Of a stretch of 64,000 nt of DNA, positions 4,001 through 60,799 are shown piece by piece. Numbering within the stretch: position 1 is the first letter of the stretch; each line of letters starts with the position of its first letter. Below the pieces are notes generated by a model. The model was not told the DNA's origin. It was given only the letters and a program-made list of their open reading frames with translations, and ran no database searches. Location of the stretch: contig CDROCS010000242.1 of the NCBI GenBank assembly GCA_977020255.1, forward strand, positions 558,001 to 622,000. The letters are read 5' to 3'. The DNA is from Obrimoposthia wandeli. Taxonomy: Eukaryota. Both the position numbers and the translations under genes were made by a program.

Positions 4001-7000
4001 CCAAACTCGACTATTTCATCTCAACCGGAAAATTCTGTGTGTAAATTTCCTTCGAAACGAGTGGTAGTTCTGATTGATTAGCATCAGAAAAAGTTAGCTT
4101 TCAATTTGACGATTCCATTGGTTTTTGACAGAAGTTTTCTCCATTACTAAGAGGAATATTGATCCGTTTATGTCCAACTTTTAATGCAATGAAACTTGTC
4201 TATGGTCTACTTTTTAAAATTAACAAAAATGTACAGCCACTTCCCAACTTTATATTGGAGTTTCACTTAATTAGTATTACTTAGTTTTTATGCAATTTTA
4301 GGGAGATTTTAGTTAGTTTTTAGATATTCTTGTCTTAATATTGATCTGTTTTTTGCATTATAATTAAAAGAAAAAACTTTAAAACTACTTTCCCGTGCCT
4401 TTCACGTTGTGGGTTTCAATTTGAGGTTCTTTTTGAATGGAGTCATCTTATGCTGACACACCTCTTAATGACGTGGGTTGCTCGGACAGGCATTTTTATC
4501 TTTTCAGTCGTTTGAGCTGGTGTATCATTTTAAATAATGTATTTCCAACTTTGTAATGTTTGTAGTTTATTACTAGGGAGGTTGGAGAAAGAGATTTGAA
4601 GTTGTTATTTTTCTAATTTTCGTCACACCGAACTTTTATGTTGTAACTGATAGTACGACTTGACAAAGAAAACTCGATGGTTCACAGGATATTGATTCGT
4701 TTTCAAAAATGGCGGTCAAAATCAAAATATACAATATTGTTTAAGTAAACTAATGAAAAATGTATTTACCGAAAAGGATACGAGGGTTTAGAAGCATATA
4801 GTTCATTTTGGGACATTGTATGGAAATTGTAATGCAAAATACGGACCATCTGATGATATACAGAAATGGAATTATGTTATTAAGGTGACACAGGTATTTT
4901 AAGTGCAGCGATTTGCTAGTGGTTTTCTCACGTCATGGCAAAGATTTGACTCGTCTCACATCTAATTTCTAACCATGCAATACTTCGTAATTTTGTTTCT
5001 GATAGCTTATAAAATAATCAAAACATTGACAATAACAAGATAGTCGGGTGCTTAGACTTTGAACAAAACATTCTAGTGATTGTACCAGCACTTTAATTAG
5101 ACTACTCATAAATCTAAAAAATATAAAATGCCTTACTAAAATAATAATATCCGGATTTCGGAAATATCCAAATAAAAGAGATTCCATAATTTCCTTTCCA
5201 GCAATTGAATACATTTGATGGTTTTCTGTTGGATTTAACAGTACTCAAAAAGAGGAAGTGTTTGTCATTAAATCTTATTTTAATATAAACTACTGCAACG
5301 TACCTGTGACAGGCAGCAGCAAAAAATACGGGTTTTAGCCCCCTTTCATTGACATTTTTCTTCCATTAAGTATTTAAATTTTATTATTAAAAAACAATGA
5401 ATTAAAAATGCTGTAAATTCCCAATATAAAAGATTGTTTGATGCGTTTAGCAAGAAGAGGAAAAAATGAATTTGTTGTCAAAATTAAAACTATATATTTT
5501 TGTTATTGTTTCTAATTATTTTTGAATTTCATTGTTTATTTTTTTAGAATTAAAAGTTAACGTTGTTCAGTTCTTTATGAATCACATTGCATTTTAATGT
5601 TTTAAGTCAATATTTATTTAAAAACCACATATTTAAATTTCTGTATAATGGCATTAGAGGATCCGTTTTGCAGTATAATTTCTGGGAATAAATTCATATT
5701 TCTATTTCCCCACAAACTGACTACAAGACTTGGTTTCTCACAAAAACTGACAACCTTTTTACACAGAACAAACTTCACTTCAAACTTGTGCTGAATCACA
5801 AAATGTCTGTCTGTATAAACGATATGCTCTGTAAAGTGTAACGACATCACAAAACGGGCCTTAATTGGCAAAAATTCAAATCAAATTTGAATTTTACTAA
5901 TTGCTGATTAAACAAACTGCTTAATAGGTAATTAATTATCAACATACCCACTCCATGATCGAACCCTATCATCAAACAAACAATTATGGATTTACAAAAA
6001 CAAATTCCCACAACATCAACATACCCAAAAAAAAATGCCCCAAAACCAAATCTCCATTTTACTTTGCTTCTGATTTCCTCAAACTACCTACTTAAATTCT
6101 ACATACTACCTTAATCCGCAGTTATCAAACTTAACTTACGAATTGCCCTAACTATCTCTTTACCATGACTTTTTATTCTTGCAACCCTAAACCTACCATC
6201 ACTACCTGGTATTAATTCGATTACCCTTCCTAACGGCGAAGTTCCTCTTTCTTTTTACTTGTTTAAAATTAAAACAACATTTATTTTAGAGGTATCACAC
6301 CATTGAGAAACTACTTATTTCATCCATCGATTCCATAAATGTTGGTTAAGCTCTTGAATTAACCTCCAACGACACCTGACTCCTCTTTTGCTTTTAAATA
6401 AGCTTTTTTGGGAAATCTTCACCTATAAACAAATGGTTTAGAGTTAACGCCTCAGGATGACCTTCATTTGTTCCTTTATAACTAATTGGTCTTGAATTAA
6501 CCATCTGTTCTACTTTTATCAAAACTGTGATAATTCTTCATCGGTCATCTCGGCATTGTTCAAGATCTTAAACATGGCTCGCTCCACTGACTTTACCATA
6601 ACTCCCAAAATGTGGCGCTCTAGGTCAATTAAATATCCATCTAATCCTGTTGACTGACATTTCCTTTTGCATCTTGAGTTCATCGACCTATACCTCTTCT
6701 AAATCATTCACCACTCCCACAAAATTCTTCCCATTATCTGATATAAATGTATCTAGTTGACCAATTCCACATATCAATCGTTTCAAAGCCTTTTTCAAAT
6801 GCGTCAGTGTCCGGGCCGTAGCTCAGTTTCAAACGAACGGCTCTCGTTTGTAAACAAGTAAATAAACAAACATATCACGTTTTCTCTTTTTACCTCGCTT
6901 GGTCAAATTGGTCCAATAAAATCTACCCCAACTCTCGCAAAAGCTCTTAGGGGTTCTTCGAAGCGAAAACTGGGTAATATTGCATTATTTGAGATATGGG

Positions 7001-25000: not shown

Positions 25001-28000
25001 TAAATTATTTTTAATTCGCATAAAACTGTTTAAATATAATAAAAATAAAAAAACGTTTAGAATAATGTAGTGAAATATTCCTTGTTTGTATATGTATTGT
25101 TGTTTTAATATTAATATATTTAGTTGCGTAATTCAAACTCTTGTACTATCTTCTTAATTTTACAACACTGGCGTCGCGAGCAGGATGGAAGAAAAATTGG
25201 AAATCATTTTAAACAGGTTGATCTATAAAGAAACAATCAAATCTCCAAAGCTTTTTGAAGGAGACAATGTGGAAGAATTCATAAGATCAGTGGAGAAGTA
25301 CCTCGAACAAATACAGAATGAGAATTTTTTAAAATGATGGAGTTGTTGGACGAAAAAGTTCAATGTTATGTATATTCGCAACCAGATTATACGAAAAATA
25401 AAAAGGATTTCACATGAAAAAAAATATGCCTTCTAAAATTATATGGAAAGAATCAATCGAATATCTCATATTGGCTTAGATTGTTTTCAATAAAGCAAAA
25501 AGATGGTCAGTCCACAAAAGAGTTCTTAAAATAGGTACGTATTCAATGTTATAAAGAACTGCCAAATATGACATCGGAAGAACGAGAACCAAAAGCGTTA
25601 GAGGTTTTCATATGCGGTTTGCTAAGTGAAAAATGTCAGAAGGCATTAAAGATGCTGCAAGCGAAGACACTCGAAGAAGCGTACGAGTTGGTAAAAAAAG
25701 AAATAGAGAGCTCTGAAGACCAAACGTCAATAGTTTATAGAATGACAGAACTGGATGATGTGAAAGAATTGAAAGCATAAATCGCAGAGTTGAAGAATCA
25801 AGTATACACTCTCACGGTTAGTATTAATAGTTTAATTAAAAATAGTATTAAGAAAGATGCTTATTATAATTCAAGTAATAAAATTAAAAGTAATAAACAT
25901 CTACTTTTAAATGTTGGAACTGTAATAGTGAAAAACACTCATTGAGAAAGTGTACGAAACCGTTATATTGTAATAGTTGTAAAAGAAATGGTCATATTGG
26001 GAAGTTTTGTAGAAAGACCCATGGTATAGATGCTATGGAAATGGAAAATTCTATAATGAGTGACTCTGACCTAGAAAAATGTAGTTCCAATTGGAGTGAA
26101 CAAAGTGTTTATACAGTGAAAACTCTTAATAAAATGAATAATAATGTTAAAAAAATTATAAAAGTAGTAAAAATGAACCTGCATCTACTACAAAAATTAA
26201 AAATGAAGAAAATAAACCAATGTGTTTCGGTAGAATTAATGGGCGTAGAGAAAAACTTCTTTTTGACACAGGCGCAGAAATAAATGCAGTTAGCAAAAAA
26301 TAGTCGATAAAATTAAAGTGAGCAATCGATCAGAAATTAAATTAAGAAAGTCGAATAAAAAGATAAAATGTGCTGATGGGTTCGGTAGACCTATAAAATC
26401 AGAAGTGGAATTGCTTGTTGATGTGGGTGCAAGACAAAAAAGTGTAAATTTATCATAGTAAATGATCTAAACACCTGTATCATACTGGGAATAAGAGCTC
26501 TGAAAGGATTACACATTAATTTTGCTTTAAAATGGAATTTATAGTGGATCTACTTCTGTACCATTTGTTTCTAGAATCAATGCAGTAACAGTGTTTCAGT
26601 CTAAAAATGTAAACTGTTAGGGTGCTGTTTAGAGAGAAACGGAGAAATTCGATTAACGATAGATTTTAGAAGATTAAATAATAAAACAAAGGTATCTACT
26701 TTTCCTATACCAGAATCTCAACAGTAGTTTGATGCACTTCGCGGTTCCAAATATTTTAGCGCCAATGATCTTGCTGCAGGATATTATAACATTCCTTTTT
26801 CTAGAGATGATTTTGAGAAAACAACTTTCAGCACTAGAAAGGGCATTGGGAATTTGTAAGAATGCCCATGGGTCTTGAAGCGGCTCCAGCAACGTTTCAA
26901 AGAGCGATTAAGTTAATTCTCAATGAAGAAGATTGGAAAGAATGCCTTATTTATCTTGATGACATTCTGGTGTTTGGAAAAACAGAAGAAGAGCATTTGG
27001 AAAGACTTAAGAATGTTTTGGGTAAGATAAGAAAAGCAGGTTTAAAACTTTGCCCAGAATTTTTTTATTTTTTTTATTTTTTCTCTAGATCTACCTGATA
27101 ATAAGCTTGTCCAATATCTAATATCGTAAATATTTTAGCATCACCTAGACAATCGAACAAGAGTTGTGCATTCGGTATGGTAAATATAAACTTCTTGGTT
27201 ACAGCATTCAATTGTCTGTAGTCAACACACATTCGAATTGTATTGTCTGGCTTCTTCACAATGACGAGTTCCAAGGACTTTCACAACGCCTTATTACATT
27301 TACTTTTAGTAAATTTTCAATCATTTCATCAACTTGGTTTTCTAAATGCATCGGTTGTCGTCTAGGATTTTGACACATAGGATCGGCAATAGTCTCAATC
27401 TTATGAGAGACAGTTTTGGTATATCCAAGATCAAATTTAGAACACATAAATCTTTTCCCAAATTCCTCAATATAATGTCCTAGAATTGAGTCTATATCGC
27501 ATTTTAAAGAATTACATATTTTATCTGTTCTTTCTTTTGAGGAAAACATTTTCATCATGCAAGACGAGTTCAAATTACATTCTTCCTGCAGCTTTATCCA
27601 AAGGTTTTCCTTGTATCGATTCCACCAACAAATTCTGGTTTAATTTCTTCTACAACGATTATTTCCAAAACATTTTCCTTTCCATTCCATAACACTTTAG
27701 TATTATACCTACCTAAGAGCTGTTGATGATTATTCGAAAAAACTCTACTCAGATATAAATTACTCTGTCTCATTTTGTGACATCGTACTTTCTTCCAACA
27801 ATCCTTACTCATTACAGTAACTGATGCTCCGGAGTCCCACAGCATTTCCCCATCTACATCATTAATCTTCATTATACTCCATTCACGACCATCATTCTTC
27901 ATATACATCTTTTCATTTCGATTTGGTTCTATATGCTCGATCCTACCGACAAAATGTGAGCAATAGGATCGCTCACGTTTCCCCGATTATCATCATGTCT

Positions 28001-31000
28001 ACATTATAACAATATTCTAAATCTTGATTATTTCCTTTCACTTCTTCTGTTATACAAAGTACTCTTGAAGTTTGATGTGGGTTCTTTAAAATATAGCAGC
28101 TGTTGAAATTGTGTTTGAGAGGATATTGATTTCGGAAAGGACCTTTTTCACCACAACAAAAACATGCTCCTGGCTGAAGTTCTTCACTTTTTCAGGAAGT
28201 CCCTTAGCTAAGTTATATTTTCTTTTAGCTATTTGTTTTAAGGAAAACCTTGGCTTTGGTCTCCTATTATTTTGATTTTGGGCGTCTCTATTTATTTATC
28301 TTTTTTATTAATTAACATAATTTCTTTGTTCCTGATGTACTGATACTGGTTTCTTCGTATTGTTTGCGAAATGACGGTTGTCAGGACGGTTGAATTATCT
28401 TTTAACTGTATTCGCATACGTATTATGAATTTGTGCAATCACAGTATTCTTTTTCTCGATTTCGCTGTTCACCTTTGCCAACGCCTCTATTTCTTCTTTT
28501 GGCATCTTTGGTTTTAATAAAAGGTGCTCCTTTAGTTTTTCACTTCTTACTCTATCTTTAATGAAAGCGTCAGTCAGCTCACCTTTGCTAACATTATTTT
28601 CCATCATAGCCTCAACGAGTGTTTTAATTCTAATGCTGAACGCTGAGAAACGCTCGCCTTCAACTTGCTTCACTTTTGCAAGTTCGCAAACTTTGTCAAC
28701 TATGGATTTCCTTTCTAGGAAATTTTCTTCAAACCATTTTTTGACTTCGATATTTGAATTTAACCTTTCACTGGTATCTTTCCATAATAATCCAGCTTAT
28801 TCGGTCAACAGCAACTCAAATGCATCCTAATATTACTCTGATTTGCGTCAACCCATTCTCCTATATCCTTTAACCATTGTTCACCTTCATTTGAACTCAT
28901 TCCATCGTATCTTCTTATGTTATACTGGAACATCATTCTTTGTTCTTTAGGCATAGTCTCGAGGATATTCTTCTTTGATTGACTTCTCGTCACTATATTT
29001 ATTTCGGCGTGGTCGCCAGTTATGTTTTCTATCGTAGACATAATTCAAGATTTCGATTTCACAACACAATTTAAATTATGTTCATTAAATATCAGTTCTT
29101 AAACAAATTAATGAAAGTATGATAATTCCAGTTTCTGATTACATAACTGTATATATATTGTTTTAATGTTAATATATTTAAATGCGTAATTACAAACTCT
29201 ATCTTTTTAATTTTACAACAAATTATGTTACAATTTAATTATAATCAAATTCTGGTAAAAATTAAAAAACAATGAATATAAATGAAAATCACATAAAATT
29301 ATTCTATATTAGATTTTGATTTTAATTTAACGAAAATGAAGATAAGAAATTTTCAACCACAAAATGAAATAACAAAAATACAATCGTTTATAATAAAATA
29401 TTTTACGCCACTTTTTACACAGAAATTAAAGAACAATTTTGGATTTTTTTAAAAGGGAAATTTAACTTTCGATGTTATGATTTTCGGTGTAATAATACTC
29501 CTCCAGTGTTTCCCACAGTGTGGTCTCGTCTATCAGCAGTAATGTGGGGAAATGAAGTGAAGATTTAGTGCGATGTAATCACCATTACTGGCTATCACTA
29601 TTTCTGTGGCAAATTTATAGGTGGTAGTGACTGTCATTTATCTAGTTGTGAAATAATGATGAAATATGCTGATTTAGTGGTATTTTCTATGCTCTCTTAA
29701 CTCGTTATTTATTTTCATTACACGCCATTTCTAATCTGGAAATGAGACGGACAATTTTCACAATAACAACCTCAATAGATTTTACATATTTGAGAGTTTT
29801 ATGTTTTTAATTTCCAGTACTTTTAAAATTAAACTATTTTTTAATAGATTTTACATATTTGAGAGTTTTATGTTTTTAATTTCCAGTACTTTTAAAATTA
29901 AACTATTTTTTAATATTTTTGAGGATGGATGTGTTTATTAATAAATTTGTCCAACATTACACTGCATGACATAATTTTTGTTGATTTAATAGGACAATTT
30001 ATTTCTAGATCGGAATTTTACAATGATTTCAAATACGCTAAGCCAAATTTTCGAACACGTCTACATTTTTATAAAAATTAAAATTCCGATTTTTAAATGA
30101 TTAGTCATATATAGTAGTGTACCTTTTCAACCAACAGATCAAGATTTGAGAGCAACATACAATAGGTTTCTTCTTCCCGCGAAGGGGTGTCCTCATTGAC
30201 TATTCTTGGATCGTATTTGCTGTTTAAATTTATGTACACGCTTATCATTTCTCTATATTCAGTTTTCTAACAGCTCTGATAATGCGCTAATTCTGCGAAG
30301 GAAATGAAATGGTTTATGGAGCATAAAGGTTACTTCGTATGAAAACCAGACTTCCAAAATTTTGTGTATTCATGCAGGAAGAACGTCTGCTTTTTGTAAT
30401 CTTTTCTCCTTAACAAATTCTGTAAGTTGATTGCAACTGATTATTCGTTAAAATGTAAGAGACTGCTTCAGAATTTCGTAAACGATCACTTATTATATTT
30501 GCAACTGCTGCAACGTCTGTCTCTGGAGAACCTTACGGTGTGACAGCAAATCCAGAACAACCATTCGTGTATGAGGAATCAAACTTTTATCTGAACTTGT
30601 TAGTGTCTTTATATCTTGCTTTCATTCTCGATACTATCCGATTATATTTGTGGAAAAAATCTACAGAATTTCCTGCTATTTAACTAAATCCCTAGTTGAT
30701 CTGTCTTTAACTAAATAATAACTTGATACTTAAATTCGCTTAACTAAAACGTAATGGCAGTAAGATTGATAGAATATTAAAATAAAGCTTACTTGTATAA
30801 GATACTGTGTTGAAAAAATTAAACTCTAAAAATATCTTAACGTCTAATATCCCTGTCGTTTTCTTAATCATACATATTCAAGAAGAATAAATTCATTAAG
30901 CAACCAGAGACCCCATTGCTATCTTTGATTCACTTAATAATTGATTACCATAATATGGTGTAAACATTTAAAAGGTTGTCTCTAAATTCTAGTTGTATTC

Positions 31001-35989: not shown

Positions 35990-38900
35990 TCCTCTCCAAC
36001 TTGTCGGCTGTCAGAGCATCTACTCAATCAGGTATTCTATCCACAGTTTCTGAAACTCCACGTAACCTAAAGCAATTCCACTGGGCACAGATATGTTCTA
36101 TGACTTTACTTGAGATTTGTATTTTAATATTCTTTCTTTCTGCAGCTGAATATTTGTAAGCCTGGAAAAGTTGATTGTTTTCGGTATTCCAGAACCCAAG
36201 GGTTCCTACTCTAATTACATAGAGTTCTACCATTTTGTCACTATTATCTTTCCGCGTAGTCTCGACTAGATTCTATATTTGTCCATTGCTTTGCTGTAAC
36301 TATTATTTTGACTCATATTACTGTCATTACTCATATTACTCAAGGGAACTTTAATTTCCGCATAGTGAATGTAGGTTCTATCTTTTACCGTAATATCTAA
36401 TCTTGCTCGCTGAATATTGTCACTGTCATCCATTACCGTAGTAGTTTCTTCCATGTCAATAGTATCTCCGTCCTTTAGGGCAAGTTTAAGTAATGCATAT
36501 ACTTCTCGAACTACCATATCGTGCCTCTGTACTTTTCAGTGATGCATTTTGTAGCATCCTACTATAGCATGGGATACAGTCTCGGGTGATGGTATGTTGT
36601 TTATTTTACACCCATATCGGCAACAGTTAACTTCATGTTTACTAAATAGTGCTTTAACATCCAAGTGTCCTATTCGGGTTTTGTGTATAAACTTTAAAAA
36701 CTATATATAAAAACTATGTATAAACTATATATTAAAAAATAAGAAATTTATGAGTGAGTTTACCCTTTAGGATAAATCTGTTAATGTCCGTATCAGATGT
36801 AGCATTTCCATAAATCACCAATCCCAGTTTATCATTAATTTTTACATGCTCAGTCCTAGCAATTGCAATCTGGTTGTGGAGATTTGCACTGATTCCTTTG
36901 TTATCGATGCTTGTGAGTACGGTACTAACATTACCCTTCTTAATGCAAATTATTACTTCATCATTTTCACCATCTGTAGCTCCTCTAGAGATTATAATTT
37001 CGAGATTCAATTCATTCTTGATTTTCTTATGAGCCTCAGTATACCTTGCCCACTCATTTCTTTCCGTTGCTTGATTAACATTTTCATTTACGGCTTGGGC
37101 CAGCCAACTCTAAAAGTATCTGCATTCCGGGATTCGTTTACTTACTAAGGAGATTAGTTCAAGTTTAAAGGCTTGTTATAATCCTATATGGTTTGCATTC
37201 GTCATTTTGAAGACTTGGATTATGGTTTTATATATTAAACTCATCCGTGATACTTGGTATACCGAATCCCCCGTGATATTTGTGACCATGCAAGGTTCCA
37301 AGAGGGGTATTTTTAGGCAGTCCTGCAATTTTTCAGAGTTGTTTCCTCACTTGCGATCATAAGCGTATTTTGTAACACTTTTTGTATCTATCATTGGTGA
37401 ATCTGTCGTAGGATATGTTGTTTTGCCTGAAACTGAATACAAACTTGGAGTGTACAAAGATTTTGTACGCCGAGATTTTCTGATGAGGATACAGCCTATT
37501 GTTCATGATCTTAATAGTCATGTCAAGATTTCCCTCAATAGATCCTCGCATTTGTGTTTTGTTTCTACATTCCTGTTCATATCAAGGTACCCGCAGGCAA
37601 TATCTGTAGTTACTGCAAGTATAGGATCTCTGTAGAGTAATATCTCATTGATTTCTTTCTTTACATCTCTATTAGTGCTGACTCTGAAGGAAATTCTGAG
37701 TATTCCACATTTGCTAGGTCTGAATCTTAATTGGATCCTGGCTGCAGTATCTCCTGCAGTATCCATCATTGTCTTCAGTACAGATTTATCCTCAGCGAGT
37801 AAGACAAGATCATCTGCATATGCTAGGGTAGCAAATTGTATAGAACCAAGTTTGAACCCAGCGTTGGGTACTTTGTTCACTCCCTCAATGACGAGATTAA
37901 TACAGATATTAAATATAATCATATACAATGGACAACCTAGGTGTATACCCTTCTATATTTTTTATATCTTAATCTTAGTTTCTCCACATTGTATGTCGGT
38001 TTTGTTCTCCTCGTATATACTGTGTACAAGTTTACACATCTTCTCCGAAATGTTAACTTTCAGCATCATTCCCACGATGAAGTCTATGGTGACTTACCCA
38101 AAGGCATCAGCGATAACCAGGAACGCAACAGGACCGGATCTTTTGTTTTTGTGACACTCATTGGTGACGAGATTGAGTACTGCATTGGGCTCAAAACAGC
38201 CCTCAAACTTGTCAATGCTCTTTTGAGATGGCTGTAGAACTTTTTCTTTCCATGACCAGTTTCGTAGATCAGAAGCAATTACAGTTGACAGTACTTTATA
38301 AAGGCAACTCATACCCGCAATTGGTCTCCATGCAGAAATGTCGCTATAAGAATATTTTCTGACTTTCGGAATAAATTTGGTCCAGCAGGTTCTCCATGCA
38401 GTAGGCATGGTACTGGCTTCCAGTATCTTGTTAAACAATGACGTTATCTCATTGCAATTTCGGTCTTGTTTCCTGGTGACGGAGTATGTTATCCCATCTG
38501 GCTCTGGGGCACTGGCAGAGGCTTTCCTGAGAGGGAAACTTACCATCTTTGCAGTAACGATATTGCCCTTAAAGGAATTTCCTCCTCTCTGAAAAAAGGT
38601 CGTCATGTAATGTACTCTAATCCGTCGTTATATGTTCTTACATCTTAGTCTCAAAGAAACCAAGTATGTTTTTCTTGTCCGGCGTACTATGAATATCAAT
38701 GTTTTCAATCTTAATCTGATTGATTGCTTCTTTGGGATTTACACGATATAATTTGACAAGATCATGGCCTTTGACTGCACCTGCATTTCGGTGTTTCTAA
38801 TGTTTGTCTTTAGCATTCTCATGCTTTAATGCAAACTGTTTCTCCACAAATTTACATTCGATGCAGTTAATCTCAATCAAGATATCGCGCAGTATGTAAA
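35990..38900 (-). mobile_element. Decayed non-LTR retrotransposon of the restriction-like-endonuclease group (R2/R4/NeSL-type)
   Basis: RT motifs APEPDGI, WRPIA, CLYKV, LGCPL, AYADDLVLL (about 37810); CCHC finger CRYGC...ETVSHAIVGC followed by RHD; RLE segment RLDITV...AEIKVP; frameshifts. Confidence 0.85.
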
Positions 38901-44168: not shown

Positions 44169-45709
44169 CACCTAATCCAACTCAACGGTGATAATAGTCA
44201 TCGTTTTGAATTTCCTATAATAAAGTAATGCAATTTTAGGTCAAATAAATAATACTTACTATAGGAATCACACACTAACTTCAAAATGAACCGTGATAAG
44301 TAAAATCAACGGTGATATAAACATAGAAACACACATACACATACAGACAAGGTACTGTATGTGATTTCATGTATTTCTTATACTATAGAAATTAATTTCA
44401 TTTCAATCGTGATAAGTAAAATGAACCGTGATGCTATTTTGCAAAAAGTTAATGTTCCGGGGACCTCAAATAACGTTGAATTGTAAGTTAATAACTTTTA
44501 TTTTAGTCTATTAATGTTTTAGGATAGATGTATCCTCCGACAGTGAAAATAATACAATACCTTTCAGAGAAAATTTTTCTTTTAATTCTGAAGAAACCAT
44601 GCCATGTAAGGAAAATAGGATTCAAATGTAAGTTATTGATGTTTTAAGTTAATTAATGTTTTAATCAGGGTTCCTCTGTCTGATAAAGCGCACCTAATAA
44701 GAGCCTATGAAGCTGGTGAAGATTATGTTATGCTCGGTAAAATGCTAAGAATAAAGCCCAACACCGTAAGAAACATTATTTACCGATACCGAAAAACCGG
44801 CAAATATACTCAAGGTCCAAAAGGTGGTTCTTTTCTTAAAATTACCGATACAGCTGGAGAAGACTTGATGAGAGAAATAGATCAAAATCCGTTCCTAACC
44901 CTCAATCACATGGCGCAAATTCTGGGCTCCTTCAATAAGGGCTCCTTCAATAAAGAAAAATATATTGCTTTTCTTCAGGAGGTTTGTGAGAAGCTCGAGC
45001 CTCATTTGAAGCACTATTTAATTCACGATAATGCTTCAATCCACAGAGGTATAACTCTACCAAATGAAAACAAGAAGATCGTTAATCTTCCTCCATATAG
45101 TCCCTTCCTCAATCCAATTGAATCAGTGTTTTCAAAGCTGAAATCACACATAAGAAGGCAGATGAATAGTTCTGGACTGCAAGAGACAACATCAGGAAGA
45201 ATTGAAGCGATGCAGACAGTCATAAGTGAAGAAATAGGAAAAGAAGAGTATGCCAACCTCAAGAATTATTACAAGCACATTCAAGATTTTTTTATATGAA
45301 GCCTAGATAAAGAGGATATTTTAGGAGATTGATGTTTTATTTACAAATAAATTAATAAATAATAAATGACTTACATTTTCTTTTTTACTTTCCATTACAT
45401 TCCATTGCGATGTTTTTGTTTCATAACGTGATCATACAGATCACAATTAATCACAAACAAAAACTATATCATTATAAATAAATATAATTATGAGATTATA
45501 TATGATTTCGCTTCATAATGTGATCATAAAGATCACAATTAATCATGTACGAAACCATACATAGCTACAAATACAGTATACAAAAACTGTAATACTACAA
45601 AAGTGTACAAAAACTACACTAGATTTTCTATTTAGTATTGATTTTATGATGCAAATATTGGATGCATCATAATTCACCTGACTCATATCACCGTTCAGTT
45701 GATCAGGTG
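44169..45709 (+). mobile_element. Tc1/IS630-like DNA transposon, 1541 bp, imperfect ~25-bp TIRs, TA target duplication
   Basis: TA|CACCTAATCCAACTCAACGGTGATA ... TATCACCGTTCAGTTGATCAGGTG|TA. Confidence 0.85.
44421..45299 (+). CDS. Spliced, internally deleted Tc1-like transposase: join(44421..44482,44523..44627,44669..45299), 265 aa
   Basis: Two GTAAGT...AG introns (40 and 41 nt) give an open frame MNRDAILQKV...; HTH KPNTVRNIIYRYRKTG; C-terminal LIHDNASIH and LPPYSPFLNPIESVFSKLK; the first catalytic Asp region is absent. Confidence 0.75.
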
Positions 45710-45899
45710 TAATAGGCGTACACCAACAATGCATACATCAACTCGATCGAATGGGAAATTATTTAATATTAATTACAATGGTTAGTGTGACAAGCCTCCT
45801 TAAAAATTGAAATGGTTAATCGCTTTATCAATCGATATTTTAAAGTATGAGATTTAGGTTTATATTTTTTAAACTCTTTCGTGCAATGCATTAAAATTG

Positions 45900-46790
45900 A
45901 ACAAAACAAAATGAGTTTTAAAGAAAAGTTAGTGAATGTACGAGATATTCAAAGTGGGAAAAAGCAGACTTCTGTCTTTGAGGAATTCTAATTTCCCAGA
46001 TCAACAGTGTTTATCATTATAAAGAGAGATGTTGAAAAACTTATTGAGGCTCACAACAGTGGAGAGAAAAAGTGAATTAAGCTTTCTACATACTCTAAAT
46101 GGTACTCAGTTATTAGAGCTCGAAATATAATAATTACGAGACAAGTACTGCCTGAAAAGGTTAAATTCTTAGACTTCAAGTATATGACTGAAAATTTAAC
46201 CGGATTTTGCAACTTTATAATCAGTATGAGATTTATTGATCGATTTAAAATTCGATGGGATATAAGTGAAATAAGGATTTGTGGTAAGACCAGTGACGTT
46301 GATATATCTACTGTGCAGCATTGGAACGATGGAATCCTGAATAATATATTGTCTAATTACTCATATTTGAAAATTTTTAATACCGACAAAAATGCTCTCT
46401 ACTGGAAACAACCTCTATCTAAAGGTCTTCTACGAAAAGAAGATACAATTAACGGTGTGAAGCAATCTAAGGATTGCATATCTTTATTTTTGGCTGCTAG
46501 CATTGTAGGAAAAATCTTTGAAATCCTTGATGGTATGTTGAATTTTTATCCGCCAAATATTTCAGTGTCGTAATTTATAATATTTTTAGTAAAACACCAA
46601 AGCCCAGATACATTTTTAAATTGAAGTTAATTCCTGTGAATTATTTTTTTAAGAAAAAAGCCTGGATGACGAATATGATTTTTAGCGATTGCATGGAGAA
46701 GATAAATTGCACATTTTAAGCATCAAATAGACACATTGGTCTTGTCGATAATTGTTCACCTCATAACACTCGTTTGAAATTTTCTAATAA
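45900..46790 (+). mobile_element. Decayed pogo/Tigger transposase
   Basis: IFNTDKNALYWK...G.KQSKDCISLFLAASIVG; KAWMTNMIF; VDNCSPH. Confidence 0.7.
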
Positions 46791-48051: not shown

Positions 48052-49941
48052 TGTTATTAGGAAGGTTGGAATCGAACTAGAATCGTTCAGTCTCTAATTT
48101 CCATTCCCAGGCCTAGCCAAACTATTTTTAAAATACAAACTAACTTCGGCCTAACCGGCTATTTTTCAGACTAAATCACACTACAATGGTTTTAGGGTTA
48201 TATTCAGATAAACTGTACACAGCACACTTACATACCATAAAACACCTTCAGACTAGAAAAACCTTCAGACTATATAAACTAGGTTGGCCAAGATTTCCCA
48301 TAAAACCTAGCTCTGTTGGGTAATTAATTAATTAATTTAAAGTCAATTTAAATTGACATTTTATAGTTATCTAAAATGCCCACAATTAGGGAGGTTTTTC
48401 AAATTCAGCCTCCGACGGGGTGGTCCCGTTTCGCCCTGTCGGGCTCGTCAGGAAGGCGGCATATAGATAAAAATAGATTTATGGCAGAATTTTCCGCCCA
48501 GTCTCCCAGCCTAGCAGCAGATCTTCGCTACCGGGATTCTGCGGATCGGGTTTTTCATCTGTCCAAATGCGATGGGTTTGGCATTTGGTTCTCCGGATCT
48601 CCCAATGGATCCCAACTTCCTCCCTCATCATCCAGAAACGACAACATCATCCACCTCTTCACCGACTACAGATCTCCCTGGCTGCTGTGACTGTGTGTGC
48701 GGGATTGGACAGCAATCCGACAATCTGCCAATGTGTCTAACCGGCCACCCGACCATTCGCCATCACCGTCGTCATTCATCATGATTTTCCTGGCTGCCGG
48801 GATTCAATGTCCAGTCGGCAACAGTCAGCGGATAGGATAGTCAAACTGTGACTTTCAAACGCTGTAACTGTGACAGTGTGTGTTTTGTCGTCCCATCACG
48901 TGCATTTTCTCTCCTATAGCTTATCTATTGCCAATCCTGGCCTGATTTGTCAACGGCGTCTGTTCCTGCTTGACATTCTCCCATATTTAACTGCAGTGGC
49001 GGTGGTTGACTTCGCACAAAAAAGAAGCTGATTTTATTTAACACAAAACAAAATATAACAGAAACTACTGATTTGAAACTGCTTACGTCTATTTTATTTG
49101 AATCTCAAGATCAATCTATTATATAACAATTCAATTGGGATTTTTGTCAAAATAAAATATAACAGAAACTACTGATTTGAAACTGCTTACGTCTATTTTA
49201 TTTGAATCTCAAGATCAAGCCATTATATAACAATTCAATTGGGATTTTGTCAAAATAAAATATAACAGAAACTACTGATTTGAAACTGCTTACGTCTATT
49301 TTATTTGAATCTCAAGATCAATCTATTATATAACAATTCAATTGGGATTTTTGTCAAAATAAAATATAACAGAAACTACTGATTTGAAACTGCTTACGTC
49401 TATTTTATTTGAATCTCAAGATCAATCTATTATATAACAATTCAATTGGGATTTTTGTCAAAATAAAATATAACAGAAACTACTGATTTGAAACTGCTTA
49501 CGTCTATTTTATTTGAATCTCAAGATCAATCTATTATATAACAATTCAATTTGGATTTTTGTCAAAATAAAATATAACAGAAACTACTGATTTGAAACTG
49601 CTTACGTCTATTTTATTTGAATCTCAAGATCAATCTATTATATAACAATTCAATTGGGATTTTTGTCAAAATAAAATATAACAGAAACTACTGATTTGAA
49701 ACTGCTTACGTCTATTTTATTTGAATCTCAAGATCAATCTATTATATAACAATTCAATTGGGATTTTTGTCAAAATAAAATATAACAGAAACTACTGATT
49801 TGAAACTGCTTACGTCTATTTTATTTGAATCTCAAGATCAATCTATTATATAACAATTCAATTGGGATTTTGTCAAAATAAAATATAACAGAAACTACTT
49901 ACGTCTATTTATTTGAAAATCCAGCTCAATCATTTATAACA
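48052..49941 (+). repeat. Putative 5' LTR of the gag-env element (3' end better supported than 5' start)
   Basis: Ends ATAACA followed by 1 nt and TGGTGAGCTCGAC; the TGTTATTAG start is a guess; no second LTR in the window to confirm. Confidence 0.4.
49047..49915. repeat. Tandem array of about 8.4 copies of a 103-104 bp unit
   Basis: Unit starts at 49047, 49151, 49254, 49358, 49462, 49566, 49670, 49774 and 49877; nearly identical copies. Confidence 0.95.
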
Positions 49942-49942
49942 T

Positions 49943-49955
49943 TGGTGAGCTCGAC
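49943..49955 (+). promoter_or_regulatory. Putative primer-binding site
   Basis: TGGTGAGCTCGAC right after a CA LTR-like end; resembles a tRNA-Trp PBS (TGGTGACCCCGAC) with 2 mismatches. Confidence 0.45.
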
Positions 49956-51848
49956 TAAGAGCACAGAATCAAGGAAAAATTTAAAGGTCATATTTTGTTC
50001 TTTTATTTTATTTGCGATAATTTATTTGATAAATTTGTATATAAACCTAAAATTTTTTTTTGTGATTTGCTTATATTTATATATACCTAAAAGATTTTTT
50101 TTTGTGATTTGCTTATATTTATCATAATTATATTTAAGTTAGGAGTTTACATAACTCCAGATTGACATCTATTTATTGTAGCTTTTGATTGATATATTAC
50201 GTTTACATTACGATTTTTTTTTTTTGTTGCGCATTTGAACATTTACATATAAACTTTATAAAACTGAGTAGTTGTCATATATACAGTTGATTTAAGATTT
50301 TATTTGCTTTGGTTTTGTGGATATCATTTGTGTTTATTGGAGGATTGGAGATTTCGTTTACATTTTTAACTATCGTTTATTTATATATTGAATATTTTTT
50401 ATTCTTACTTAACAATTATATTTATCATTTTAAAAAAAATAAAAATTTCCACTATAGTTGAGGTGTTTGCCTCGTAAGTTTAAAATACTAAATAGTTAGG
50501 AATTTAACTTAAAAATTATATAAACTATTATTATTTTGAATATAATAGTTATATTTATCTTAATTTTGTGAGAGCCATTTGTAGTTTTGAGGGATTAAAA
50601 ATTTCTTTGCATTTTTAACTATAGTCTACTTATATATTGAATATTTTTATTTACTTAACGATTATATTTGTCATTTTTAAAATTCATATAGTTGAGGTAT
50701 TTGCAGCTGTGCACACAAGCCTCGTAAGATTAAAAACATAATTTTGTTTCCTGAAACATAGTCGGGTCCTGTTCTCTAATTTTCTTATATAATTTGAGTT
50801 GTGTTGATCATTTTAATCAAAAAAGTTATAGAAAAAATAATTTATTGGTTTTTGGAGTTCTGTTCACATAAAGGCTAAACACTGGCCGTTGTCGGATAGA
50901 GTAATCAACAAACAAAGCACAACTCAAATACAATAAATTTTGAGAAAATTTTAAAATTTTCCTTTGAACTGGTTTACCAGTAGAAAATTCGTTTTTTGAG
51001 AACTATAAATTGGAGTGGATTTATCTATTAGAGGCGTAAAAGTAAAATAAAAAACTAAAAAGATAATAAAAGTTAAAATAATCATATAAATATATTTTTG
51101 TATAAAAATAAAATTGATCAAAAAAATTAAAATTTTGTCGCAAATTGTCTTGTTTCCCAAGTTACGTCGAGTGCTATCATATAAAGACTATATACTGGTT
51201 GACGGTGGTAGTGCTCAAAGTGATAAGGGACAGAGATTGTTGAGATAAATTTTTGAGTCTTGTTATTGTACTAAAAAATTAAAAAACAAAATAAAATAAA
51301 AAACTTCGGAAAGATAAATTTTCTCCAGAGATTTTCAGAGAGCGTGTTTTTAATATTGATAAGAGAGTTTGATTTTTGAGATTGACTAAATAACTTTTAC
51401 GAATTCCACCGAAATATTTTTAGTTTCAGTACGCAGTACGCATTTTTCATTTGTGCAATATTTGATTTTGAAACTTTAAATAAATTATTAATAACACAAA
51501 CCCAAAGATCTATCACAAAAACAGACACACAAAATAAGTAAACAAAAACGTAGCGCTAGCCTTCACTGGAGAAGAATTCAAACAAGATTAGTTAGGACAG
51601 ACTCCAGTGAAAAAACAATTCAAAGACCCAAATCACAAATCAATTTTACAACAAATAACGATTTACTTACACAGACTTCCCCACTCTCAGAACATCTGGA
51701 CCTAACATTAACCTCAGATACAGAGAGTTTACCTTCACCTCAAACATCTGACTCGGATAGTTCGTCAGAGATAACGGAAGCAGTAGCCGTACCAGAACCA
51801 CCTATTGTACAAATAAACAACGAACAAATAATCGATCAACCTCAAATA

Positions 51849-54711
51849 ATGGCTGAACATAAATTAAATGTTCCTTTAGACGCTTTCAATGGCGATAAAT
51901 CTTCACTACCCGAATTTTTAAATAGATTTGATTCATTTGCTCAGGCATTGGAATGGACTAATGTAGAGAAACTTAGGGTTTTTCCGGCGTATTTAAAAGG
52001 TACACAATTTATAGAGGATTAAATAACGAACAGAAAGACACATGGGACCATTTAGTTCAGAATTTTCAAAATATGATTTTAGGAGCACAGTCTGAACAAA
52101 ATTACCTTAACCAATTTAGGCAACGTGAACAACATTTTGGAGAACCCACAAATATTTTTGCAGTTGAATTACGAAGATTAGCATTAAAATCATTTCCCGG
52201 AATTGAGGAAGTCTTAAGAGAACGTTTGCTCCTACATCAATTTCTATATGGGCTAAACAGTAAAATAAAAAATCACCCAGCACTACTAGAAGTAGAAAAT
52301 TTTCAGCAAGCTGTAAATAAGGCTCAACTTGTAGAAACAAGATTAAATATGTTACAACAATCTGAAGTTTCAGCATTAACCTTTGAAAAAATACAAAGAC
52401 CTACAACACCACCAAATTTCAATCAAACTCAAAACTATAACCCAAATACACAATCTAATTACCAAAGCCAATATACACCACCGACAAATAACTTTTATAG
52501 AAATCAAACAAACAGAAACTATACAGACTCACAAATTACACAAAGACCTTTCCAAAAAGTACAAATTGTGGACTGCAAAATCACACAATAGAGAATTGTT
52601 ATAAAATAACCAACAACAAATTTTGTAGATTTTGTAAAAAAGACAATCATACTATTGAAACTTGCCGAAAACTGTTATACAGACAAAGTAATAATATACG
52701 ACCACAAAATAATAACTTTAACAATCCTAATAATAATTTCAAAAATACAAATAGTAATTTTAGAAGCCCATATAATAACTTCAGTAATCAAAATAATCAA
52801 GCTAAATATTTTAATACTAATACAAAATTTTGTAAAATTTGTAATATGAAAAATCATAATACTGATGAATGTAGCAAACTAAATACAATGATGAACCAAT
52901 TTGGTAACACAATAATAAAACAACAACAACCACAACCACAGAGTCAAAAAACAGTACAGTTTAACAATCAAAATCAACAATATGCTTACAGAAACCCAAT
53001 ACATACTATTGAAAACACTGATATAACTCAGGAAACAGAAGAAGTTGCATTGATGAGATTAAGGCAACAAGAAATAGATAATCGCTACAAAGAAACACAT
53101 CAGCAATACCAAAACAATGAACAAAACACAAATAGTACCAACTCTCAATCCGAATTCGGAGAAATATTTAGAAACGGTTGTCTAACATTAGAAAAAAGAA
53201 CACAAATAAGTAAAAAAATAAATCAAACCACTCAAACACAAGATAAAAAATCGAAAAATAAAAATAAACAAAAATCACCAAAAAATAGTAAAAATTCAAA
53301 TCTTAAAAATACACATAATTTTAACAAAATCATCCAGAATTTATGGAAAATAATTCAAATAATATTTATGATATGTATAATTACAAATATAATAAAACCT
53401 ATAAATGCTCTTGAAGCATATGATTGTTCAAAATATAGTATTCAAAATAAATATTCACTAATGGATTTACAACAATGCGCCGACGCAGATCCAAATGAAG
53501 TAAAAGTTAAAACCACCAAGTTATTTCATGTATACCAGGAAACAGATTACATAAATACAGAAGTTTTCGAATGTAGAGTACATATGGAGACATTCATAAC
53601 ATATTGCGGACAACACAGCCATAATTCAATTGTTAAACCAGCATTAGGAAAAACACCAATAATTGTTGACGCGTTAAATTGTAAAGATGCTTTTGCAACA
53701 GGCGAACTGAGAATAGATAGAGAAATAAAGGTAAAAGCAATAAAAAACAAAATAATACAACAAATGATTACGGTGGTAGGAACTATCAAATCTGACGGAG
53801 AATGCACAACAGGGTCATATGTCGTAATGGGAGTTAAACAAAGTGGTTTAGTAGTTATAAAAAACTTTGAGGTAGAACTAAGAACATTTAAAACAACATT
53901 TGATCCATCTACAAATACCATGGTGACTATGCCATTCTGTGCAGCAAATATCGGATATTGTAACACAGGATCTTCAATTTTATACTATAAGGTAAAAACA
54001 GACCAATGTAAATTAATACTACTAAAATCAGAAAATTTCCAAATAATTCAAGGTCAAAGATTCAAAGTTGATCCAGAGCTAGATCAACGAATTCCAAAAA
54101 ATATACTTAAAAAATATAGAACTAGAAAAATACAAAAAACATCAACTCCAACTATTTTAATGTCAACAGAACAAGGTTCTGGAATGCGATTTATTAAAAA
54201 GAAAGAGGAATCCCGATGTGACACTCTATTTATACAACTAATTATAAAGGAATATATCTAAGTAAAGAAAAAATTTATAATACAAAAACTACACAAACAA
54301 AATTTGATATAAAAAATTACGATTATTTCAATAATAAATTAGATTATTTTTATCACAAAGGGTTGATGACAATAGAAGCTATCTATAGAGAAACAATAAT
54401 GAATGACTGTAAATTAAATCAAGAAATTTTGAAAACAAAACTAGCAATTATTGCTACAAATCCAGAATTAATAACACCATTATTACCGTTACCAGATGGT
54501 ACTTTCGGAAGAGTAATTGGAGAGGTACTATATACGTATCAATGCCAAAAAGTAATAGTTAATATAAGAAATCACAATAAATGTACCAAAGAATTGCCAA
54601 TTTCATACAAAAATCATTCATTATTTGTAGAACCAATCACCAGAATAATACTTTTTAACACATTCAGCATAAAAGAAATAAACTGTTCAAACATAATGGC
54701 ACCTCATTATA
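51849..54711 (+). pseudogene. Gag-Env polyprotein ORF of an LTR element (capsid, 3 CCHC knuckles, signal peptide, chuvirus-like class III glycoprotein); three -1 frameshifts; 3' truncated by the Polinton
   Basis: Gag LDAFNGDKSSLPEFLNRFDSFAQALEW and FAVELRRLALKSFP...LLHQFLYGL; knuckles (C)TNCGLQNHTIENC, CRFCKKDNHTIETC, CKICNMKNHNTDEC; then IIQIIFMICIITNIIKPINA-LEAYDC...ECRVHMETFITYCGQHSHNSIV...CKDAF; frames rejoin by single-base insertions at about 52008, 52558 and 54237. Confidence 0.8.
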
Positions 54712-54718
54712 AGTAGGT

Positions 54719-54932
54719 GGAAGGATGGAGTCTAAGCCACTTTACCCCCCCCTAAAGGGTGTCACACCATAAAAGGTGTCTTGCCACACCATAAGGGTAT
54801 ATGTTGCCTCACCTCTGGTGAGGCAACATATACCCTTATGGTGTGGCAAGACACCTTTTATGGTGTGACACCCTTATGGTGTGACACCCTTTAGGGGGTG
54901 GGGGGGTAAAGTGGCTTAGACTCCATCCTTCC
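54719..54932. repeat. Long inverted repeat (hairpin), 95-nt arm, TCT loop at 54814-54816
   Basis: The left arm 54719-54813 pairs with 54817-54932 apart from a 16-nt duplication and about 5 extra nt in the G-run. Confidence 0.95.
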
Positions 54933-55668: not shown

Positions 55669-56120
55669 TTATATACAATTTACATAATCAATACATAGAG
55701 AAAAACATTTCAAATAAGCACAATGTTTTCCGTGTTTTCTAAACGGACATCGAATATTTTTGGCATTTTCTTTAAATTTTTGAAACTTTTATTATAATTC
55801 ACAATTCTCAAATTTGGAAACATTCGTTTCACTAAATTAATTTTCTTTCCATCAATAGAATCCATAACATAGAATATTGTTTCAACATCATCAATATGAA
55901 TATCAGAGCTTTCACCTTCAAACCAGGATAACTGATGATGATGATTTATCAAATATAGATTTTTTCTTTTAACTGTAAATGATAAACTACTCCATGGTAT
56001 TTGATTTTTAAACACGTAATGAAATGGACAAGTCATATCATTCACATACATTATACATAATTCCTTTGGAATATATTCTCCATTATTATCAATAAAACAT
56101 TCTAAATCAATAAAAGCCAT
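55669..56120 (-). CDS. Polinton DEDD/DnaQ-like exonuclease-fold protein with Cys/His-rich tail (one -1 frameshift at about 55760)
   Basis: N-terminal FIDLECF...YIPKEL; the shifted frame gives IRCPFRKHGKHCAYLKC*. Confidence 0.6.
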
Positions 56121-56174
56121 TTGAAAATAAAATAAAATGAAATACTAAAATGATATATTTGTTTATACTTAAAA

Positions 56175-56555
56175 TTATTTGTGTTGAAGTTTCAACCATA
56201 AAAGACTCAGAGGTCCGCAGTTTTTAGTTAATGGATTCTGACATTTAACTCGATTATAGTAGACTGAAATGTTTTCTTTTTCAAGTGTAGACACCAACTT
56301 TGCAGGATAATAGAATCCAAAAGGATCAAACACTCGAATCTCGAATCTGTCAACGAATATTGCTATCCAATGCTCGCCTGGTAGATTTGAAGTATGAGTA
56401 TTGATAATGTAACCTCCGGGTTTTAATGATGGAATTTTATCCAATGAATATACTCCATTAAATTTGTTATTCAATAATATTTTTCCGGATTTATGAATTT
56501 CTAAAGTACTAATTTTAATAAAGAATATAATATAAAATAAGCTTACTTCATACAA
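56175..56555 (-). CDS. Adenain-like cysteine protease
   Basis: GVYSLDKIP...INT...PGEHWIA...FDPFG...CQNPLTKNCG (catalytic H, D, Q, C); the true start is probably near ISTLEI. Confidence 0.9.
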   Translation of the reverse strand: MYEVSLFYIIFFIKISTLEIHKSGKILLNNKFNGVYSLDKIPSLKPGGYIINTHTSNLPGEHWIAIFVDRFEIRVFDPFGFYYPAKLVSTLEKENISVYYNRVKCQNPLTKNCGPLSLLWLKLQHK

Positions 56556-59218: not shown

Positions 59219-60242
59219 TATTCAATTTGAGAAGCAAATATCCAAGAAGGTTCAGAGTATCCGTGCCACTTTACGTAATATTGTTTATTCTTACCACGAC
59301 CTTTAGTTTCTAAAATTTCTTGTATTCGATATAGTTTAGGTTTATCAATTAATTGTAACTCTTGTTTATAAAATTTTCCTTTGATGATGACGTTATCAAT
59401 ATCTTTTAAAATATACATTATTGGATTTTGTTTATAATTAATATCATGAATTTGAAAAACCTCATCACTCCAATTTTGATTAAAATTTTTAATAAATGGA
59501 CTTGTACTTATTTTTGATATTCGAACATAATCATCAATTTTATATTTAGATTTAAGTTTCTTTTCTTTTAGATTTTGTTACAACAAAATATCAAATTCAT
59601 TTTTATTATTTACATCTACAGGTTTTAAACCATCTAAACCTCTATGTTTAGAATTATTATAAGCATAAATAATTTTTGGTAATACATTCACCCATTTCTT
59701 ATTACCTTGTTTAGTAAAATATTTCTTTAACCGTTCTCTTAACGTTCTATTAAATCTTTCAACTACTGCAGCTTTATATTGAGAATATACTGAATAATGA
59801 TTGATATTTTCAGTTTTAAATAATTTCTTAACATGTGAATTAAAAAATTCTTTACCTTCATCGGTTTGGATATTTACTGGTACATCATCAACAATTAAAG
59901 ATTCTATTGCATGTAATAAATCAATACCTGATTTTGTTTTAACTCCAACTGCCCTTGCAAAACGACTAAATACATCAATACAAGTTAAAATATACTTGAA
60001 TCCATTATTTACTGAAGAATAAGGAATCATTTCCATTAAATCCATCTGCCATAACGAATTAATACCATTAGTTTTATATGATCTAGTAGGGAATTTACGT
60101 CTTAAAGGTTTATTCAGACTATATGATAATTCATTTCTTAACCATTTTTGTGTGTTTGTTTTTGATTGTTTGACTCTTTTGTCAATTTTTCTAACCCTGT
60201 ATAACCGTCTGGATCTTCTGGATTGTTCCAAATCTTTTCCAT
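59218..60242 (-). CDS. Retroviral-type integrase with C-terminal chromodomain (frameshift at about 60178, in-frame TAA at 59578-59580)
   Basis: Probable true start MEKIWNNPEDPDGYTGLEKL; WQMDL, IDVFSRF, QTDEGKEF, VERFNRTL; chromodomain YRIQEIL...YYVKWHGY. Confidence 0.92.
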
Positions 60243-60389
60243 TGCAGCATGAAGAATTAAAATTTATAAATAAGTTAGACAACTTTGTATTGTTTATCCC
60301 CATTATTATAAAAGTTAAATATATTTTAATCTGTTTATATGTTTGTATAAAACGAATGAATGTAATTATTTTCGTTATTAAGACAACTA

Positions 60390-60799
60390 TCCCCATCTTG
60401 AAGATATAACACTAGCTATTACTGATGCTATAGCGGGCAGTAGGGCTAATATGAATCCACCATTTTGATTATAAATAATGTTTCTTTTATTAATTTTACC
60501 ACGTGAATTTGCTAAATTTATTAATGAATTTTTATATTTTAAAATATTATCATCAGGTTTAATTTTACCATAAATTATTTATTTAAAATTTTTATTAAAT
60601 CATCAACTACATAAATTGGAAATGATTTCAACATTTTCATTTTATTCGTTTTTGGTACGTCAATTAAGGTTTTAAAATAAGGTAAACTTTTTGAAAATTC
60701 AATATTATTACGATCATATAATACAGTATTTATTAATTTTTTAACTTCATCTTTATCTGTCCTTTTACTATGTTTAAGAATACTCTTTTTAAAATTCAT
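60390..60799 (-). CDS. Small basic protein ending in a GG-hydrophobic helix (adenovirus pX-like); -1 frameshift at about 60577
   Basis: ...VDDLIKILNK-IIYGKIKP...LANSRGKINKRNIIYNQNGGFILALLPAIASVIASY; the 3' end is uncertain. Confidence 0.6.

Follow-up and report, generated by a model that had tools for sequence, protein, structure and literature searches.

The stretch analysed here (the window) comprises 64,000 nucleotides of Obrimoposthia wandeli (GenBank assembly GCA_977020255.1, contig CDROCS010000242.1, positions 558,001 to 622,000 of the forward strand) and carries the 5′ part of a long terminal repeat (LTR) retroelement, covered by four contig sets of one sample. Coordinates above 64000 continue the window numbering along the same contig. 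The element is a dead member of a Ty3/Gypsy family of the autonomous type, which is about 15 kb long; a Maverick-like insertion has split this copy, which measures ~15.1 kb without it. An earlier interpretation made from the window's letters (the sequence-only reading) had taken it for a pol-less element. This was refuted by the contig: the retroelement resumes 1.5 kb beyond the window with the remaining env, protease, reverse transcriptase (RT), RNase H, integrase and a 3′ LTR, and Pfam finds RVT_1 (E 1e-40) and PF00929 (E 1e-10) behind the insertion. The pol-less appearance was due to the window edge together with the nested insertion, which lies in env and shifted pol past the window end. 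Env matches Pfam PF24664 (653 positions) up to profile position 436, the point at which a hairpin and minus-strand open reading frames (ORFs) begin, and again from profile position 435 behind the insertion.

The interrupted copy

The two LTRs of this copy are 99.4% identical over 963 nt, and their main difference is the number of 104-bp repeats. No protease, RT, RNase H or integrase was found between the primer binding site (PBS) and env, which is what the sequence-only reading had stated. The host tRNA-Trp(CCA) genes complementary to the PBS sit on contig C5734, in a tandem array of ~35 gene units with a 207-bp period (positions 143176-151119, locus L144); ARAGORN returned no tRNA on the loci L130, L131 and L137-L143. 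Two related elements (L130, L131) have a 24-nt PBS that matches tRNA-Trp.

Translation of 51400-54760 gave four overlapping frames (51495-52019, 51977-52588, 52501-54258 and 54222-54713), with frameshifts near 52000 and 52558 in Gag and near 54219 in Env. The last two CCHC knuckles, the linker, the signal-like segment and the first part of env share one of these frames (52501-54258). Two knuckles are intact (52624, 52831) and the first one is broken. As described in the sequence-only reading, a linker rich in Gln, Asn and Lys leads into a hydrophobic segment (53329-53409), which is directly followed by LEAYDC and, at 53602, by YCGQHSH. The features of the copy are collected in Table 1.

Table 1. 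Coordinates of the retroelement copy and of the element nested in it
Feature	Position	Strand	Remarks
Target duplication, 4 bp	48310-48313		repeated behind the 3′ LTR
5′ LTR, TG...ACA	48314-49941	+	8.2 copies of a 104-bp tandem repeat at 49044-49899
Type I hammerhead ribozyme motif (predicted)	48408-48457	-	near the LTR 5′ end, antisense to the element
PBS	49943-49955	+	13 nt, one G-U wobble, complementary to host tRNA-Trp(CCA)
Gag	51849-52872	+	51849 is the first ATG after the PBS; capsid, then CCHC knuckles
Linker and signal-peptide-like segment	52873-53409	+	linker basic and Gln/Asn/Thr/Lys-rich; then the hydrophobic segment
Env ectodomain, N-terminal two thirds, class III gB/chuvirus-like (predicted)	53410-54711	+	
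Maverick/Polinton-like insertion	54712-65506	-	10.8 kb; runs beyond the window end at 64000
Rest of Env, protease and RT	65513-67713		one 750-aa frame
RNase H and integrase	67671-69882		frameshifted
Post-integrase membrane module (putatively FN3-like)	up to 70976		
Region of the ~103-aa ORF	71098-71537		
DEDDh exonuclease ORF	71777-73000		
3′ LTR	73223-74228		outside the window

One frame for gag, env and pol in an abundant family

A search for further copies, a look at the frame between gag and env, a comparison of LTRs and a test of selection had all been suggested along with the sequence-only reading. In the 1.35-Gb genome there are at least 40 matches to gag-env, all 40 of the scored ones at 96-100% identity, and at least 103 matches to one type of the post-integrase module (103/103 scored at 93-100%). 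We worked with a set of 40 copies, consisting of the interrupted copy and 39 others (10 kb each), 20 of which were extended to 21 kb.

The Pfam order in the family is Gag, Env, protease, RT, RNase H and integrase. The 28 of 40 copies in which both motifs were found have 1547-1578 nt between the Gag start and the env start, without a pol domain between PBS and env. Across the 40 copies, the family has pol behind env in the same frame, and it is neither pol-less nor non-autonomous. Natural open frames extend over 1898 aa from gag to RNase H (copy L042) and, within the fetched stretch, over 1833 aa from the linker to integrase (copy L058), and the single ORF of the family amounts to ~2,780 aa. 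The frame is open from the knuckles into env in 31/40 copies, from the Env transmembrane (TM) segment to the protease in 23/40 and from integrase to the post-integrase ectodomain in 5/20. Every copy carries a few breaks; no frameshift site, however, is common to more than two of the 40, and the family therefore has one ORF without a programmed shift. Programmed frameshifting or readthrough from gag into env or from env into pol was rejected for the same reason, and also because the one stop that is common occurs within env. The claim that Gag continues into the glycoprotein without a stop thus holds for the family, whereas the present copy is spread over four frames with three frameshifts. Likewise, the three CCHC knuckles that had been read here are a family trait (34/40 copies), of which this copy retains two intact. 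Gag is capsid-like, as had been proposed, with a weak match to PF03732 (E 0.0016, L042).

Selection was evaluated on variants common to at least two copies, which have mostly passed through replication. The ratio of nonsynonymous (N) to synonymous (S) variation, pN/pS, was 0.04 for the capsid, 0.11 for the env ectodomain (25 N, 58 S), 0.03 for the protease and 0.03 for RT, against 0.38-0.52 for private variants in the same four regions. Env and pol are under purifying selection.

One premature stop recurs. It lies in env at codon 1133 (L042 numbering), upstream of the TM segment, and is present in 11/38 copies. Together with a window that shows the end of env and no pol, such copies, able to make only Gag and a soluble piece of Env, might be invoked for a non-autonomous gag-env element that borrows pol in trans. 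This explanation is extremely improbable. Pol lies beyond the insertion in the interrupted copy and after env in the family, it evolves under the purifying selection just described, and env runs straight into a 3′ LTR in none of the 39 other copies, one of which (L037) lacks a long ORF downstream of env within the sequence that was fetched. Moreover, the stop occurs on different haplotypes (highest r2 0.21 among 217 informative sites), which fits a hotspot better than a spreading sub-lineage; a clonal sub-lineage with truncated env was rejected on this lack of linkage. A mutation hotspot is the probable cause, as the stop sits, by eye, in an imperfect inverted repeat; assembly bias is an alternative.

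The family belongs to Ty3/Gypsy as judged from its order of protease, RT, RNase H and integrase, paired TG...CA LTRs, short target duplication and tRNA-Trp PBS, and does not derive from Pao or Anakin. LTR pairs were recovered in 14/20 extended copies at 94-99.6% identity. The 4-bp target duplication was found in the interrupted copy and in 8/9 others with both ends located, and 4/13 were unresolved. In the 30 nt upstream of the 3′ LTR, only the last few bases are purine-rich, and no canonical polypurine tract was recognised there. RT is 49-66% identical to that of relatives in pairwise comparison. In L021-L058, nearly the same gag-env-pol backbone is joined to 5′ LTRs of two or more types that look dissimilar, with several tandem-repeat units.

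A class III fusogen fold for Env

The two Env pieces inside the window, in the frames 52501-54258 and 54222-54713, match PF24664, Monjiviricetes_fusion (E 1.4e-29 and 1e-25). The natural ectodomain of L042, modelled with an 81-row alignment, gave a pLDDT of 89.5 and a long central helix, and the Env cysteines are conserved across the 81 aligned sequences. Among PDB entries, the best Foldseek match was herpesvirus gB (E 2e-13, TM-score about 0.4), and the viral models were headed by glycoproteins of chuvirus and chu-like type (Tacheng tick virus 4, E 1.7e-40; TM-score up to 0.79). A search of solved structures with the env sequence returned no match at E 10. The model supports a chuvirus-like or herpes-gB-like class III fusogen fold, in agreement with what the sequence-only reading had recognised.

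A HMMER search found 1,259 relatives at E 0.001. In the best of them, which are long polyproteins with 27-45% env identity, env precedes the protease, and also RT in those that reach it. A word-based homolog search gave no match at similar length and one at longer length (P0001). A signal-like segment precedes env in the relatives P0001, P0003, P0014 and P0016 as well. P0001 (HBK71150.1), a gag-env-pol polyprotein of 2,627 aa, has the same architecture and is filed under a Flavobacteriaceae metagenome bin, where it is probably a eukaryotic contamination. In P0002, P0003, P0004 and P0151, env and pol are surrounded by several aspartic-protease domains in tandem, and ankyrin and C2H2 motifs were noticed as well; P0151 (4,844 aa) has up to seven aspartic-protease stretches in Pfam.

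Whether such an Env acts in fusion may be questioned. A single ORF keeps env open regardless of fusion, the family is known here from its genomic copies, and the env pN/pS of 0.11 exceeds the 0.03 of RT; replication could then take place only inside the cell, with Env and the post-integrase module kept mainly as membrane anchors or by sharing a frame with pol, and not for infection between cells. We judge this quite unlikely. An in-frame position requires neither that pN/pS value nor a complete class III fold nor conserved cysteines, and the topology of the post-integrase module is conserved in distant relatives.

Modules downstream of integrase

The ~450 aa of the ORF past integrase comprise a second signal-like segment, an ectodomain that carries several N-glycosylation sequons, a stalk rich in Thr and Lys, and a TM segment followed by a tail. 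This module was present in all 20 extended copies (one of them partial) as two types, A and B, which are 53% identical, with a dN/dS of 0.30 between the types for the ectodomain. By hydropathy, the family and the relatives P0001, P0003, P0151 and P0014 share the succession signal, TM, Pol, signal, TM; the first signal of P0151 is below threshold and was read by eye. An L-x-P-x-T-x-Y motif, reminiscent of FN3, follows integrase in P0001, P0003 and P0151, but not in P0014. In the ESM Atlas, FN3 appeared in 10/10 of the best family matches (0.92 for type A, 0.88 for type B). AlphaFold reached a pLDDT of 34 for the ectodomain with nine rows of the two types. On this footing, FN3 is a lead for the identity of this module.

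A separate ORF downstream of pol contains a DEDDh exonuclease domain (PF00929, RNase_T; the DEDDh motif was read by eye). It is largely present in 18/20 extended copies as at least three types, and most of it is gone in the other two. The dN/dS of the DEDDh domain is 0.10 (exo1 versus exo3). The 103-aa ORF was found in 15/20 extended copies and is absent from five. On one backbone, the post-integrase and exonuclease types combine differently, which points to recombination.

A predicted type I hammerhead lies close to the LTR 5′ end, in antisense orientation relative to the element. Its Rfam RF00163 score is 28.2 bits (E 6e-4), short of the gathering threshold of 34; the core elements CUGANGA, GAAA and NUH and the three helices are present, and 19/20 extended copies have the antisense core. 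Pairing was tested on 17 distinct motifs chosen by hand, five of them from neighbouring or related elements; 97.6% of cells were paired and 6/15 pairs had changed on both sides, figures to be read with the relatedness of the motifs in mind, which inflates such tests. None of 500 shuffles reached the covariation score, and slid controls were 29-56% paired. Similar motifs occur in related or neighbouring elements (L130, L131, L082:4208-4262, L098:2631-2684 and L077:5269-5322), and the feature therefore reaches other families of the genome.

It may be asked whether the post-integrase module, the exonuclease ORF and the hammerhead are mere passengers, captured from the host or from other elements and without a role. 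Their exchangeability would be in line with this (two post-integrase types and at least three exonuclease types in differing combinations), as would the copies lacking most of the exonuclease (2/20) or the small ORF (5/20) and the similar hammerheads of neighbouring elements. We consider it unlikely, given the between-type dN/dS of 0.30 for the FN3-like and 0.10 for the DEDDh domain, and given that the hammerhead core and its pairing are kept by compensatory changes across otherwise different LTR types.

A 341-aa ORF with BIR-like and RING-like motifs was seen by eye in L079 (contig C1801, ~4550-5572), and lies downstream of the break of the exonuclease ORF in copy L040. It is possibly an IAP-like gene of another inserted element.

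The nested insertion and its surroundings

The insertion is bounded by inverted repeats starting with AGTAG and by a 6-bp target duplication (54706-54711 and 65507-65512). It contains an rve integrase (59581-60411) and an adenain-like protease (56178-56555; PF00770, weak, E 0.003), a combination which we take to be the signature of Maverick/Polinton elements. Further ORFs were read as capsid-like, without a Pfam match. No ORF of at least 180 aa is left in its 10.8 kb for a protein-primed DNA polymerase B, and the insertion is probably a deleted Maverick copy. Its left terminal repeat contains a 200-bp hairpin with perfect arms and 26/52/78-bp tandem repeats. The hairpin (54719-54932) was rejected as the retroelement's own end, as it lies inside this terminal repeat. 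A small DEDD-like ORF was noticed by eye at 55713-56144.

Elsewhere in the window, other decayed elements were seen by eye at 25900-28800, 37500-38600 and 44640-46570, among them CCHC and protease-like remnants and fragments of a non-LTR RT and of a Tc1/mariner-like element.

A possible route through the secretory pathway

Host signal peptidase processes viral polyproteins, and we propose that it does so here. The polyprotein chain would cross the membrane of the endoplasmic reticulum (ER) four times. The first signal would take Env into the ER lumen and the Env TM segment would return the chain to the cytosol, where Pol would fold; the second signal would then take the FN3-like domain into the lumen, to be anchored by the last TM segment. 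A cut by signal peptidase after each signal segment would yield a membrane-anchored Gag, an Env-Pol protein with Pol held on the cytosolic tail of Env, and a type I FN3-like protein, from which point the protease of the element would later free RT and integrase. Gag, Env and Pol would in this way be made at about 1:1:1, without frameshift or splice. The family would thereby likely form enveloped particles, which would bud into the secretory pathway and gain entry to other cells via class III fusion. The one-frame gag-env-pol architecture with processing of the polyprotein by signal peptidase appears highly probable to us. The sequence-only reading had already suggested a split by this enzyme; the internal signal segment, as judged from hydropathy, is indeed a likely point of separation, although the substrate would not be a single Gag-Env polyprotein, as pol follows in frame.

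For the FN3-like protein, the most likely function would be that of an attachment or surface-modulating partner of Env, and the exonuclease and the antisense hammerhead would most likely act on RNA and limit silencing by the host. These roles, attachment for the former and defence against silencing for the latter, are tentative and rather doubtful. If all parts were taken together, the family would represent a two-glycoprotein lineage of endogenous viruses with a four-times-threaded polyprotein, a class III fusogen carrying Pol, a swappable tropism protein of FN3 type and an anti-silencing pair of exonuclease and hammerhead, a picture that is speculative and on the whole doubtful.

Several observations weigh against the proposal or parts of it. 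The membrane topology was predicted from hydropathy, as were the signal segments. A second hydrophobic segment lies behind the Env TM segment (residues 1224-1242 of L042); if it crosses the membrane, the proposed topology fails. Against present activity stands the fact that the whole ORF is open in 0/20 extended copies, to which the recurrent env stop may be added. As for the FN3-like assignment, the features shared with ESM Atlas matches (148-157) are below the 170 typical for true family matches, Pfam fn3 gives E 0.13 for type A and no match for type B, and phmmer found nothing significant between the post-integrase module and the four relatives. The FN3-like region of type B copies, with few shared variants (2 N, 1 S), displays no clear constraint.

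Comparison with known systems

The order gag-env-pol with an in-frame gB-type env is already known (PMC6431247, PMC13524379), and the gag-env junction, which had been thought undescribed, is thus in print. Ty3/gypsy 'ancient errantiviruses' with a gB-type env and GAG-ENV-POL order have been reported from flatworms, nematodes and bryozoans, including six elements of Schmidtea mediterranea, Smed_errantivirus_1-6 (Chary and Hayashi, eLife 2026, PMC13524379). As far as the accessible text goes, they share with the present family the gene order, an env resembling the Chuviridae glycoprotein and flanked by signal and TM segments, and the presence of many similar copies. Compared by eye, the env of the Smed elements resembles that of the family, and the C1a-type sequences appear to have eight cysteines and several motifs in common with it. 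By these affinities, the host is probably a planarian. No PBS is listed for the Smed elements in that material, whereas here the PBS corresponds to tRNA-Trp. Exonuclease, DEDD, fibronectin, polyprotein and in-frame are not mentioned in the text of PMC13524379, nor fibronectin, FN3, exonuclease or hammerhead in its seven supplements.

A second group consists of giant planarian gypsy elements. Their description is presumably due to Arkhipova and Yushenova. In these Burro/GYPSM1 elements, env lies in frame between gag and pol, which the accessible part of the description calls the first such case (Genome Biol Evol 2019, PMC6431247). Burro resembles the family in having env in frame within one polyprotein, three CCHC knuckles and tandem repeats, and its env, like ours, matches mononegavirus fusion glycoproteins. 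Both have a spacer between protease and RT, dUTPase-like in Burro and without a Pfam match in the family. Burro, however, exceeds 30 kb and encodes a 4,873-aa ORF with BIR, BCL2, MATH and ankyrin domains, whereas the family measures ~15 kb and ~2,780 aa, and Pfam domains of these four kinds are absent from its ORF. A post-integrase membrane protein, an exonuclease or an LTR hammerhead are not mentioned in the accessible part of PMC6431247. Its flipped order of env and pol connects the family to a further group, in another host phylum.

The elements of this group, nematode endogenous retroviruses, are reportedly built as one continuous gag-env-pro-pol ORF, as Sacco et al. are said to have described in J Gen Virol in 2022. 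According to the passages that cite them, they combine the flipped env-pol order with a glycoprotein derived from an RNA virus (Sacco et al. 2022, cited in PMC13524379). The mosquito Anakin elements, known to us through the same source, carry a chuviral glycoprotein and thus the same glycoprotein class, but belong to BEL/Pao (Dezordi et al. 2020, cited in PMC13524379), while the family is Ty3/Gypsy with a complete pol.

The additional modules have counterparts elsewhere. In the rotifer LTR elements Vesta and Juno, a DEDD-family exonuclease ORF (ORF3) likewise lies downstream of pol (Rodriguez et al. 2017, PMC5408684); according to the part of that paper at hand it is of DEDDy type and replaces env, whereas the exonuclease here is of DEDDh type and additional to env. 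Hammerheads are found in plant non-autonomous LTR retrozymes (type III), metazoan non-LTR retrozymes and Penelope-like elements (PLE)/Terminons (review, PMC7761336), and thus, as here, in terminal repeats of retroelements; in the accessible portion of the review, no coding Ty3/Gypsy element such as ours is listed with a type I hammerhead that lies antisense in its LTR. Our literature search revealed neither such a hammerhead nor a post-integrase FN3-like membrane protein, although Sacco 2022, Grohme 2018, supplements or Repbase may already describe some of these extras. A second membrane module, an ORF for a DEDDh exonuclease and an LTR hammerhead in antisense orientation were not found together in print.

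In conclusion, we could identify a young and very abundant gag-env-pol family whose anatomy predicts how the polyprotein might be processed, a question left open in the accessible parts of PMC6431247 and PMC13524379. A two-glycoprotein lineage, if true, would amount to a herpes-like division between binding and fusion, which we did not find described for a retroelement. The second in-frame membrane protein could then be the receptor-binding partner of gB-like retroelement fusogens.

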